From contig ONBO01000003.1 of assembly GCA_900316125.1 (NCBI GenBank), forward strand, positions 418 to 64,417: DNA of 64,000 nt, given 5' to 3'. Made by a program: the position numbers and the translations under genes. This document shows, piece by piece, positions 6,898 through 10,041 of this stretch (position 1 is its first letter; each line of letters begins with the position of its first letter). Source of the stretch: an uncultured Bacteroidales bacterium. GTDB lineage: Bacteria > Bacteroidota > Bacteroidia > Bacteroidales > Paludibacteraceae. Under the pieces are notes generated by a model. It made no database searches and was not told the origin of the DNA. It saw only the letters and a program-made list of their open reading frames with translations.

Positions 6898-8439
6898 CTA
6901 CTTAACCATAACCTTCACAGCCTCATCACCTACTTTTACTACATACACACCCGATGCAGGCACTGGGTTACCAACTGGCAGACCTGCTGTGTTGTACACT
7001 CTTATATCTGATGGATCTTTCCCATTAACAGTAATCAACTTCTCACTTATAGAGATTGCATCCTTTATATTCTCTGAGGTGCTTTCATTTACATTCACCA
7101 GATCTTCTATGCATTTAAAATTAGAGGAATCAAAATAGTTCCAACCATCCGCTATCATATAATCAACAAGACTGGCACAAGGCACATAAACTTCAACATC
7201 ACTGCCCACATTTACAAACACATCGTTCGATGTTATAGTCGGAGGCACATCGGCACGACAAATAATTCGTTTAAGACTTATACAACCAAAGAAGGCTTCT
7301 TCGTTAATATTTGTAACACTACTTGGCAGATCTACGTTAAGCAACAAAAAACAATACATAAAGGTCTGAGATTCAACAGTTGAGACCCCATTGGGAATTA
7401 TCACATTAGTTAAATTGGTATTTCTAAAAGCACCACTTCCTATAGCTGTAATACAGTCAGGAATAATTATATTCGAAAGTTTAGAACATATATCAAAAGC
7501 ATAATCGCCTATTGACTTCACCGTATTGGGAATTTCTATTGATGTTAGTCCACTCCTGCTAAACGCAGCAGGCCCAATAGATTTAATGCCCATAGGGATT
7601 GTTGTATTTTTACAACCTGACACTAATGACAGGTTTGATTTTTTTATTATAGCATTACAATTATCTCTAGAATCATAAATAATGTTATTTGGATCAACGC
7701 TTATCGATGTTAATCCAGAGCACGCAAATGCTCCTTGACCTATCTCTACAATATTTTCAGAAATGTTTATTGAAGACAATCGTGACCCTCTAAATGCTGA
7801 TACGCCAATAGAAGTAACACTATTAGGGACTGTTACTGTTTCCAACTTTTCGCAACACCAAAAAGCACTATCCCCAATACTTGTAACCCCTTCAGGAATC
7901 TCTACAGTTGTCAACTCATAACAATTACCAATCGCATGTTTTCCTATTGACTTTACACTATTGGGTATTTTCACAGATGGTATGTTAAAACAGTCACTGA
8001 AAGCGTAATCATTTATTTTTTCTACTCCTTGTGGAATTTCTATTGGGCTTAACAAATCACAGCATTTAAAAAAGGCACTATCTCCAATTGAAGTTACACT
8101 ACTGGGAATATTTAAAGATTTAACATTGTAGCATGACGCAAACGCAGAATTACCTATCGATGTTATACCATTACTTATTGTAACCTTTGTTATGCCTTCT
8201 CTACCCTTACATGCATTATCACCAATGGTCTTAACACCGTATGTTTTACCATCGTAGTTTACAACAACTGGGATTGTAACCTCACCCTCATAATCTTTGC
8301 CCTTGACCGACACTATTGTGGCATACTTGCCATCCTCTGATGAATAGCCAATGCCATCAACCTCAAAATTTGTCACAGCGGCAACATCAAATGAAACCGC
8401 CAATAACACGCACACAAAAAAAGGTCTAAATCTTTTCAT
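6898..8439 (-). CDS. BspA-like leucine-rich-repeat surface protein with T9SS C-terminal sorting domain
   Basis: 513 aa with a signal peptide. It has about 14 repeats of the (I/V)P..V..IG..AF..C..L pattern. The tail VYNTAGLPVG...GVYVVKVGDEAVKVMVK is CTD-like. Confidence 0.8.
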   Translation of the reverse strand: MKRFRPFFVCVLLAVSFDVAAVTNFEVDGIGYSSEDGKYATIVSVKGKDYEGEVTIPVVVNYDGKTYGVKTIGDNACKGREGITKVTISNGITSIGNSAFASCYNVKSLNIPSSVTSIGDSAFFKCCDLLSPIEIPQGVEKINDYAFSDCFNIPSVKIPNSVKSIGKHAIGNCYELTTVEIPEGVTSIGDSAFWCCEKLETVTVPNSVTSIGVSAFRGSRLSSINISENIVEIGQGAFACSGLTSISVDPNNIIYDSRDNCNAIIKKSNLSLVSGCKNTTIPMGIKSIGPAAFSRSGLTSIEIPNTVKSIGDYAFDICSKLSNIIIPDCITAIGSGAFRNTNLTNVIIPNGVSTVESQTFMYCFLLLNVDLPSSVTNINEEAFFGCISLKRIICRADVPPTITSNDVFVNVGSDVEVYVPCASLVDYMIADGWNYFDSSNFKCIEDLVNVNESTSENIKDAISISEKLITVNGKDPSDIRVYNTAGLPVGNPVPASGVYVVKVGDEAVKVMVK

Positions 8440-8493
8440 AATTAATTGATAATTAAATTAAAACATTGTAATTAAAGCGAATAAAATTGACAC

Positions 8494-8722
8494 AAAAAAA
8501 GGCGAGACCTCAAAGTTCACTCTATCCATCTTGAGGTTCTAGCAAAACCTTACACTGAATAAAGCAACATGAAGCCTACGCCGTATGTAAAGCCCATGGC
8601 AAAAAGCCACAGGCACAATTACATACCCGTAGGCATTCATTGTCGCAACTATCCGTCAGTGTATTGAAAATTTGCTAGATTCCAAGATGCCGGACTGCGC
8701 GTCAACAAACGCCTAATATGTC
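8494..8722 (-). ncRNA. Candidate ~225-nt structured sRNA (rod-like imperfect hairpin with its own promoter and intrinsic terminator); identity unknown, possibly a 6S-like architecture
   Basis: A TACTTTTG -7 box sits at 8728-8735 (minus), with TTTG 19 nt upstream. About 59 bp of nested pairing spans 8527-8689, with a UUUUU apical loop. Several G-U pairs form only on the minus strand. A terminator-like stem, CCTCAAG/TTTGAGG, is followed by seven T (8494-8500). Confidence 0.5.
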
Positions 8723-8771
8723 GTGTACAAAAGTATGAAAAAAAATCCAACAAACAAAGGCCTCACCCCTT

Positions 8772-8803
8772 TTTGTATTTCATACTAATTTTTATTACTT
8801 TTG
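8772..8803 (+). promoter_or_regulatory. trp operon promoter (-33 TTTG / -7 TACTTTTG)
   Basis: TTTG is at 8772-8775. After a 20-nt spacer, TACTTTTG is at 8796-8803. The trpB ATG is at 8836. Confidence 0.5.
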
Positions 8804-8835
8804 CGGGTCAAAAATAATAAACTCATCTTAATTCA

Positions 8836-10041
8836 ATGAGAGATTTCCAGCAGACAGACCAGAATGGTTTTTACGGCTCATTTGGTGGGGCGTACATTCC
8901 AGAGATATTGTACAAGACGGTAGAGAATCTTAAAGAGAGCTACCTTAGTGTGATAGAGAGCGAATCCTTTAAAAAGGAGTACCACGCACTACTTAAAGAC
9001 TACGTGGGGCGTCCGAGCCCGCTCTACTACGCTAAGCGCATGAGTGAGAAGTATGGATGTCAGCTCTACCTGAAGAGGGAGGACTTGAACCATACCGGCG
9101 CACATAAGATAAACAACGCCATAGGTCAGGCATTGCTTGCAAAAAGGTTAGGCAAGAAACGCATAATTGCAGAGACGGGAGCAGGACAGCATGGTGTGGC
9201 AACCGCTACTGTATGCGCCCTGATGAACATGCCATGCCGTGTGTATATGGGTGCGCTTGACGTGGAGCGCCAGCACGTTAACGTGGAGCGTATGCGTATG
9301 CTTGGAGCAGAGGTGTTTCCTGTTCAGAGCGGCAACAAAACCCTGAAGGACGCAACTAACGAGGCCATCAGGGACTGGTGCTGCCACCCTGCAGACACAT
9401 TCTACATAATAGGTTCAACAGTAGGCCCTCACCCCTACCCCGATATGGTGGCACGCCTGCAAAGCGTTATATCAGAGGAGATAAAGTGGCAGCTTGAGGA
9501 GCACATAGGCCGTGACTATCCAGACTACATACTGGCATGCGTTGGAGGCGGAAGCAACGCCGCAGGTGCCATATACCACTTCCTAAACAATGAGAAAGTG
9601 CGCATTGTGCTTGCTGAAGCTGGCGGACTGGGCATGGAGACAGACAAGACCGCCGCATCGCTGCAGATAGGCACAACCGGCATACTGCACGGAAGCCGTA
9701 TAAAACTTATGCAGACCGCCGATGGGCAGATTGTGGAGCCATATTCAATATCGGCGGGACTTGACTACCCTGGCACAGGCCCTCTGCACTGCAACCTCTA
9801 TGAAACAGGTAGAGCCAAAGTGCTTGCTGTTAATGATGATGAGGCTCTGCAGGCTGCATTTGAGCTCACAAGGCTTGAGGGCATAATTCCGGCACTCGAA
9901 AGCAGCCATGCCCTTGCCCTGCTACCAAAAATGAAATTCAAAAAAGATGATGTGGTGGTTTTGAACGTAAGCGGGCGCGGTGACAAAGACCTTAACACAT
10001 ATCTAGCACATAAAGATGAAATAGACTATGACAAAATTTAA
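8836..10041 (+). CDS. trpB: Tryptophan synthase beta chain
   Basis: 401 aa. It has the PLP-lysine region ([12 protein letters not shown]) and GGGSNA. It is the first gene of the operon. Confidence 0.93.

Follow-up and report, generated by a model that had tools for sequence, protein, structure and literature searches.

Attenuators and riboswitch platforms are arranged in the order promoter, structured leader, intrinsic terminator and open reading frame (ORF), and their mutually exclusive pairings involve the 5' arm of the terminator, with a 1:2/2:3/3:4 logic where a third strand competes. T-box and cyclic di-GMP (c-di-GMP) riboswitches occur in several to ~15 copies per genome, each copy heading a different unit and ending in a terminator, and they are built from long irregular helices with conserved internal loops. 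For the Bacteroidales, which dominate gut and rumen communities, very few RNA regulators are known. Candidate structured RNAs from comparative genomics include Bacteroidales-1 (RF01693), Bacteroides-1 (RF01694) and Bacteroid-trp (RF01692) (Weinberg et al., 2010; PMC2864571). Here, we analyse the window, a stretch of 64,000 nucleotides (nt) from an uncultured Bacteroidales bacterium of the family Paludibacteraceae (assembly GCA_900316125.1, contig ONBO01000003.1), which carries on its minus strand, at 8494-8735, a Bacteroidetes-type promoter, an irregular rod of ~165 nt and then a U-tract. We show that this element belongs to a covarying, sense-strand structured RNA family. On balance, the RNA at 8494-8724 of the minus strand is probably the cis-acting 5' leader of the mRNA of a leucine-rich-repeat (LRR) protein gene, switching between read-through and termination.

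The family shares with attenuators and riboswitch platforms the order of their parts and, in its predicted folds, the exclusive pairings at the 5' arm of the terminator, and in most copies a third, potentially competing strand is present. Nevertheless, there are clear differences from the described systems. The first is that, unlike attenuators, the family has no leader peptide (no ORF is conserved within it), no known ligand and downstream genes that are functionally unrelated; for the 51 downstream proteins searched against Pfam, there was no common pathway or ligand logic of the kind found behind metabolite riboswitches. The second lies in the conserved domain, which is a rod of ~170 nt rather than the compact aptamer of a riboswitch, and which has no Rfam match. 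T-box and c-di-GMP riboswitches resemble the family in copy number, in the variety of units headed, in the closing terminator and in their long irregular helices; however, neither model matches it, aminoacyl-tRNA or amino-acid genes do not follow it, neither a specifier nor a T-box sequence was identified in it, and it is restricted almost wholly to the Bacteroidales. RF01693, RF01694 and RF01692 come from the same bacterial order and were likewise found by comparative genomics, but their models match no copy tested (the Bacteroides-2 motif has no Rfam model and lay outside this comparison). The scan with Rfam covariance models that had been proposed in the initial annotation of this DNA, for 6S RNA and the Bacteroidales families, gave no relevant match, and at permissive thresholds Rfam 15 returned only chance matches to eukaryotic families for the window, canonical and 'mini' copies. 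Literature searches by conserved strings and topic words found no account of the family. Within the limits of the libraries searched, the RNA family thus appears to be undescribed.

The features of the window copy and the gene that follows it are given here in the order of transcription.

8758-8755 and 8754-8751, minus strand: two TTTG motifs, candidate -33 element of a Bacteroidetes-type promoter, read from the sequence with a function suggested by the consensus
8735-8728, minus strand: -7 box TACTTTTG (TAnnTTTG consensus), immediately ahead of ACGACAUAUUAGGCG, the conserved 5' end
8494-8724, minus strand: predicted leader RNA of ~230 nt, the short-5' form of the family, as placed by the nhmmer profile, covariance model R1 and alignment A1 (described below)
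8698-8713, minus strand: P1, a small 5' hairpin, GGCGUU-UGUU-GACGCG, kept across the family (RNAalifold columns 109-113 with 122-127)
8527-8689, minus strand: irregular rod with helices P2-P6, an apical hairpin and conserved internal loops, corresponding to the 163-nt hairpin of the initial annotation
8689-8682 with 8536-8527, minus strand: helix CATCTTGG with CCTCAAGATG, the basal helix of the rod
8679-8671 with 8546-8538, minus strand: helix TCTAGCAAA with TTTGCTAGA
8663-8656 with 8558-8551, minus strand: helix TACACTGA with TCAGTGTA
8646-8642 with 8568-8564, minus strand: helix GCGAC with GTTGC
8640-8636 with 8573-8569, minus strand: helix ATGAA with TTCAT
8634-8619 with 8590-8574, minus strand: helix GCCTACGGGTATGTAA with TTACATACGGCGTAGGC
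8614-8606 with 8600-8592, minus strand: helix GCCTGTGGC with GCCATGGGC, closed by the loop TTTTT
8574-8583, minus strand: core segment with the strongest conservation, CGGCGUAGGC (in most copies CGGCGUGGGC), which forms the 3' strand of P5 and has (nearly) invariant columns in A1
8536-8530 with 8514-8508, minus strand: alternative hairpin CCUCAAG/UUUGAGG with a 15-nt loop, sharing the 3' arm of P2
8494-8504, minus strand: CGCC plus seven U, the 3' closing strand of the rod and the U-tract, aligned with GUCCCGC-U7 of the canonical family terminators
6898-8439, minus strand: BspA-type LRR protein gene, 513 amino acids (Pfam LRR_5, E = 1.9e-93), with an N-terminus that resembles a signal peptide

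Bacteroidetes promoters have the consensus TTTG at -33 and TAnnTTTG at -7. Both elements precede the rod, the -7 box being located at 8728-8735 with a TTTG 19 nt upstream (8758-8755), just as the initial annotation had placed them, and the other TTTG (8754-8751) is spaced 15 nt from the box; the leader RNA presumably starts near 8720-8724. The window copy lacks an optional 5' domain of the family (GUCCACGCCG ... GGGUGGGCU). It matched positions 60-293 of the 293 positions of the nhmmer profile with 162.9 bits, and covariance model R1, whose E-values are rough, with 126.1 bits and E = 3.6e-27. The minimum-energy fold of the minus strand (ViennaRNA) has an energy of -97.5 kcal/mol and reproduces the imperfect hairpin with the nested helices previously listed. 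Its z-score against dinucleotide shuffles is -7.16, with none of 200 shuffles as good, and it is 17 kcal/mol better than the fold of the plus strand (-80.4 kcal/mol). The helix that adjoins the U-tract in this fold, AGGCG (8714-8710) with CGCCU (8504-8500), forms the base of the whole rod, and P1 is present in the fold of the window transcript truncated ahead of its 3' end.

The element is not confined to this locus. A DNA search of the genome to which the window belongs, which is 96% complete and comprises 2.07 Mb in 75 contigs, revealed another copy with 72% identity, and genomes of the same genus gave many matches at 68-78% identity. Public genomes were scanned with a sequence pattern, and an nhmmer profile was then used to part true copies from chance matches. 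True copies were found in metagenome-assembled genomes (MAGs) labelled Paludibacteraceae, Candidatus Enterocola or Bacteroidales (RUG, RGIG and UBA series; rumen and gut), and a few in MAGs labelled Prevotella, Prevotellaceae or Bacteroides. Alignment A1 comprises 50 non-redundant copies and A3 their cores (MAFFT, unfitted to structure); covariance model R1, with 173 positions and 38 pairs, was built from A3. With R1, the own genome holds seven strong and four mini copies, at least 11 in total, to which the nhmmer profile adds one fragment at a contig end. Within the same bacterial family, R1 matched 91 of 151 genomes and 25 of 33 genera, with 1-15 matches per genome and more than 450 matches altogether, and among Bacteroidales sampled across families it matched 27 of 151 genomes; the RNA thus occurs in ~60% of the genomes sampled from one family, and its share of the wider Bacteroidales sample is about one sixth. 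A sample of 151 genomes across the phylum gave a single match outside the window's own family.

The aligned copies allowed the fold to be examined for selection, and the counts that follow overstate the statistical weight, because related copies are not independent. RNAalifold found 42 pairs, 24 of them with compensatory double changes, which are the compensatory substitutions in related copies that the initial annotation had asked for. In P2, up to 23 of the 50 sequences differ on both sides of a pair, and one pair of P3 is G-C in 23 sequences, C-G in 21 and A-U in five. Standard pairs are formed by 95.4% of the paired cells of A3, compared with 31-48% when the 3' partners were slid by 1-3 columns; double changes occur in 25 of the 38 pairs (9-14 when slid) and in 205 cells (26-44 when slid), and none of 500 column shuffles reached the observed values. 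The paired cells hold 241 G.U against 27 A.C combinations. Owing to this excess, the fold is assigned to the strand on which promoter, terminator and ORF follow one another, which argues for an RNA and against duplex DNA; selection on a minus-strand RNA, earlier proposed from the window alone, is hereby borne out. The ortholog in the sister genome G001, 93% identical, carries seven substitutions in the RNA, all of which are unpaired or preserve a pair (G.U to A-U, C-G to U.G).

An element acting at the level of DNA, namely an inverted repeat similar to a miniature inverted-repeat transposable element or an attC-like folded recombination site that marks cassette slots, would suit a module that has sharp boundaries before variable cargo, as at the loci L016, L019, L022 and L014 described below. 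However, the copies are ~70% identical (paralogs 68-78%) with compensatory changes rather than near-identical, neither terminal repeats nor target duplications could be seen beside the hairpin, and in the own genome the copies are dispersed, one per locus and on separate contigs, with no arrays. The constant framing by promoter and terminator and the G.U excess on the transcribed strand likewise point to RNA, and blastn searches of phage and plasmid collections found no similar sequence; we regard a DNA element as very improbable. A 17-mer pattern did give 27 matches in viral contigs, and in the genome scan this pattern also gave many matches in unrelated phyla. The narrower scenario of a strain-specific inverted repeat, which the initial annotation had named as its own refutation, is excluded by the ~70% identity, the compensatory changes and the spread over many genera.

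The canonical copy consists, from 5' to 3', of the TAnnTTTG box, the optional 5' domain, ACAUAUnA, P1 (GGCGUC-UUUA-GACGYU), a U-rich linker (UUGUnnUU), the rod P2-P6 and a GC-rich terminator with a conserved loop of 11-12 nt (GCGGAAC-nGCAAnAnUGnA-GUCCCGC), followed by six to eight Us. The 5' domain, present in about four fifths of the copies, is formed by the strand GUCCACGCCG, a variable hairpin and GGGUGGGCU, and its ends pair as a local helix, which resembles a duplicate of the core helix P5. In about one fifth of the copies, including the window copy and its ortholog, this domain is absent and the promoter box stands directly before ACAUA. The rod helices are hypervariable in sequence, and the internal loops and some stems are conserved; the apical hairpin varies in length from ~20 to more than 100 nt. 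The conserved rod segments are GAAUCUnGCAAAUUC; GCAACAnAAGAUG; CCUAYGGGUAUGUA ... UACAUACGGCGUGGGCUUC; and GGGCAAUGCnAGAGCC. Sequence conservation is strong even within helices, for example in GGUAUGUA/UACAUACGGCGUGGGC. The window copy has no canonical 5' terminator arm and carries GUCUCGCC-U7 where the others have GUCCCGC-U7. A conserved small ORF starting from an AUG in the rod was considered and rejected: the AUG is not invariant, the frame stops after five codons in many copies, and the length of the apical insert is a multiple of three in just 25 of 50 copies.

The position of the RNA relative to genes is as constant as its fold. A TAnnTTTG box lies upstream in all 20 copies examined whole (L025 and L011, the only two without a box, are truncated on one side), and each copy seen in full is followed by at least six Ts. 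A co-directional ORF begins 0-384 nt past the Ts in all 55 distinct copies, at a median of ~70 nt, and just three of the 55 gaps between Ts and ORF contain a TAnnTTTG box. The control consisted of 233 regions of this genome that precede long ORFs and are themselves free of ORFs; the box occurred within 150 nt in 53% and within 75 nt in 42% of them. Given the depletion of boxes from the gaps and the co-orientation, the downstream genes appear to depend on the leader promoter; across the 55 copies, the RNA holds the place of a leader, between a promoter and a co-directional ORF that in nearly all cases has no box to itself. The same arrangement was seen in ~13 of 14 copies from other Bacteroidales families and mini copies. 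In the window, the start codon of the LRR gene (8439) lies 55 nt past the U-tract, and the gap between them (8440-8493) has no TAnnTTTG box. The initial annotation had left open whether the rod was akin to 6S RNA, a new small RNA or a switchable leader for the LRR gene, and with 55 of 55 co-directional ORFs and boxes in three of 55 gaps the last of these fits best.

The likeness to 6S RNA, whether as 6S itself or as a 6S-like regulator of RNA polymerase, had been drawn from the rod and its 9x5 internal loop. The overall rod shape and the length do fall in the 6S range, and the genome has no Rfam 6S match (RF00013 is absent from the whole genome at E <= 1), its own 6S gene, if any, being unassigned. 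Yet no 6S model match was obtained in window 8000-9300 even at E <= 10, and 6S is encoded by one (rarely two) stand-alone genes, whereas this family has at least 11 copies in the genome and is always followed by a co-directional ORF. The family also has no conserved central bubble; the 9x5 loop of the window copy falls in the variable-helix region of the family alignment and is not a conserved feature. The chance that the element is a 6S RNA is therefore extremely small.

The same framing bears on the idea that the copies are stand-alone, trans-acting small RNAs or protein-binding scaffolds of ~230-300 nt, which would end at the terminator and act elsewhere, the downstream gene being expressed only through chance read-through or from a promoter that escaped recognition. 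A promoter box of its own for each copy, a terminator that is usually a strong GC stem plus U7, the sequence conservation within the helix GGUAUGUA/UACAUACGGCGUGGGC, as in protein-bound RNAs, and the mutually unrelated downstream genes would all suit such RNAs. What would not be expected of free-standing small RNA genes is the close co-directional ORF in every one of the 55 copies together with the depletion of boxes in the gaps, and the alternative pairings described below overlap the terminator. We consider this explanation rather unlikely.

A Pfam search of the 51 downstream proteins showed them to be unrelated. BspA-type LRR_5 proteins account for four (including the product of the window gene) and Fib_succ_major lipoproteins for two; others are AbiH, a PvuRts1I-like restriction enzyme with an SRA domain, a DEAD helicase, DUF559, glycosyltransferases (GT2), a sulfatase and an AraC-type regulator. 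Many have no Pfam match, and by eye their N-termini resemble signal peptides or lipoprotein signals. In most cases, the unit downstream begins with one ORF alone and not with an extended operon. From these sequences, the picture is one of accessory genes with fast turnover. Three loci in three species (L016, L019 and L022) have in common an upstream gene of 350 amino acids and a near-identical leader; L019 departs from the other two 35-45 nt past the Ts, with a different first gene, and L016 and L022 depart from each other ~300 nt past the Ts. L014 has in common with these loci only the RNA itself, ~180 nt before it and 16 nt after it. The module acts as one unit, and the place behind it seems to be a hotspot for gene replacement.

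Such gene classes are also served by the RfaH, UpxY and LoaP systems. A processive antitermination or mRNA-protecting leader, similar to put or EAR or working with a specialised NusG paralog, would, through the folded RNA itself or a factor that it recruits, make the polymerase ignore the adjacent terminator and those further along accessory operons. The family resembles the NusG-paralog leaders (RfaH-ops/JUMPstart, UpxY in Bacteroides capsule loci, LoaP) and put/EAR in having a long leader, a presumed control at termination and accessory surface-structure genes behind it; its place ahead of horizontally variable surface-protein, defence and glycosyltransferase genes and the terminator directly after the RNA would suit this mechanism. 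In contrast to the short DNA or RNA motifs of those systems, however, the family is a covarying rod of 170-300 nt, and it has no similarity to the put or EAR models of Rfam. The 96%-complete genome holds a single NusG-domain gene (PF02357), with no specialised paralog detected, and the prevalence of single ORFs over long operons at the start of the downstream units is a further point against antitermination, which we judge to be improbable.

The leader interpretation draws further on alternative pairings, which are of different kinds in canonical copies and in the window. In canonical copies, the rod can be lengthened when the 5' linker and P2 pair with the terminator's 5' arm and loop, as UUGUAGUU does with AACUGCAA in L016. 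The terminator fold of L016 (-107.3 kcal/mol) and its antiterminator fold (-103.9 kcal/mol, calculated with the 3' arm of the terminator blocked) are mutually exclusive and nearly isoenergetic, with a difference of 3-4 kcal/mol. Complementarity of linker and terminator is better within copies (-5.5 kcal/mol) than between copies (-4.9 kcal/mol), 26 of 2000 permutations being as good (p ~0.013), and individual compensatory cases exist, such as L015 compared with L016. A further pairing concerns the 5' domain, whose strand GUCCACGCCG is complementary both to its local partner GGGUGGGCU and to the core segment CGGCGUGGGC, so that in copies with a 5' domain the core is also a long-range partner of the 5' strand (A1 columns 13-22 with 321-330). 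The complementarity to the core holds in most of the 38 copies aligned there, L018 being a weak case. In two lineages in which the core differs (CUG in L032, 1242-1600; CAG in a copy of the own genome, G0_C40, L184:2577-2911, G000:C40), the 5' strand is altered to match. Pairing of the 5' strand with the core and the rod cannot coexist as a nested structure. That the nested 5'-strand/core fold is a thermodynamic equal of the rod was ruled out by its energy, which is 4-28 kcal/mol worse; since it is less stable, this pairing, if used, must be kinetic, factor-assisted or a pseudoknot.

In the window copy, P1 competes with the closure AGGCG/CGCCU at the U-tract, and the hairpin CCUCAAG/UUUGAGG and P2 exclude each other because they use the same 3' arm of P2. 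The rod has -97.4 kcal/mol and the fold with CCUCAAG/UUUGAGG enforced -93.2 kcal/mol, a cost of 4.2 kcal/mol. The initial annotation had read this stem as terminator-like and as sharing an arm with the basal helix. The stem does exist and does reuse that arm; it is, however, no canonical intrinsic terminator, because its loop has 15 nt and it ends 7 nt ahead of the seven Ts (8500-8494), and a scan with a consensus terminator did not call it. The U-tract at 8494-8500 itself is the likely point of termination of the window leader.

Taken together, we favour a switching leader, and the mechanism would run as follows. Transcription would start at the TTTG/TACTTTTG promoter, and the first ~230 nt would fold into the small hairpin P1 and the long irregular rod P2-P6. 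The U-tract right after the closing strand of the rod would stop the polymerase 55 nt ahead of the start codon, and the decision between this stop and read-through into the LRR gene would be set by which of two exclusive pairings forms. In canonical members, the basal helix extension (P2 plus the 5' linker) would sequester the 5' arm and loop of the GC-rich terminator; in members with the 5' strand GUCCACGCCG, that strand would pair locally or with the core CGGCGUGGGC, which would break the rod. The window variant, with no 5' strand and a rewired 3' end, would instead choose between P1 and AGGCG/CGCCU and between P2 and CCUCAAG/UUUGAGG. The effector may be a small molecule, a protein or another RNA. 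We infer that termination occurs, that it is regulated and that the rod would be the 'on' state.

Several observations weigh against a switch of this kind. The downstream genes have no common function; this would be an uncommon pattern behind a metabolite riboswitch, and it offers no hint of the signal. For the antiterminator extension, covariation lends modest support, and the nested 5'-strand/core fold lies, in most cases, 8-25 kcal/mol above the minimum-energy fold. With its long loop and its spacer before the Ts, the window terminator is non-canonical, and the rod is the more stable state there, so that this copy may read through or terminate constitutively. Strong terminators would equally fit a family of stable stand-alone small RNAs.

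A broader reading can be offered only tentatively, as possible but not what we would expect: the family may serve the accessory genome of the Bacteroidales as an RNA switch that acts genome-wide, a portable promoter-plus-leader module that answers to one common signal. The module would be placed before newly acquired surface-protein, defence and peptide-biosynthesis genes, and the signal might be a small molecule, an RNA-binding protein or a stress such as phage attack. Members with the full set of strands would then face a three-way choice among 5' strand with local partner, 5' strand with core, and rod versus terminator. If true, the riboswitch-like or protein-dependent attenuators would gain a new class, one with an unusual regulon. 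A switch of either scope would define a regulon and an effector-sensing RNA class that are both new, and would explain a common control of variable surface and defence genes; for annotation, the family would account for hundreds of seemingly 'empty' gaps of 200-400 nt in these genomes.

The mini form of the family has a core of ~120 nt without P6 and the apical extension. It retains P1, GAAUCUnGCAAAUUC, GCGUGGGC, AUGCnAGAGCC and the terminator, and it prevails in several other Bacteroidales families with large genomes (G112, G039, G119 and G066). The mini copies of the own genome (L195-L198) are the following.

G000:C43:6740-6861: mini copy
G000:C18:3939-4058: mini copy
G000:C23:32120-32240: mini copy
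G000:C56:181-303: mini copy

A pairing of the leader with the translation start of its own gene was also considered. Leaders with their own start regions gave -16.8 kcal/mol, compared with -16.2 +/- 0.33 kcal/mol for permuted ones, and 195 of 5000 permutations were as good, which is too weak to claim.

At the window locus, the middle of the LRR gene (window 7275-8098) has no blastn match to the G001 ortholog, and the flanks are 91-97% identical; the LRR proteins of the two genomes are 60% identical overall, the repeat region diverging quickly. On the other side of the leader, G001 (L187, G001:C25:31000-41000) carries a 2.5-kb insert between the leader promoter and trpB, with two ORFs of 339 and 227 amino acids co-directional with the leader, and the window genome has no such insert. 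The insert is flanked by a direct repeat of 198 nt, 97% identical (L187 4147-4344 and 6851-7047), which contains the trpB promoter and the first ~115 nt of trpB. Judged from its sequence, the insert looks like the footprint of a single-crossover insertion. At L014, ~120 nt upstream of the leader promoter are duplicated (74-196 and 1259-1380) and bracket an ORF of 303 amino acids, which makes this locus the second case, after G001, of a direct repeat bracketing an insert beside the leader module.

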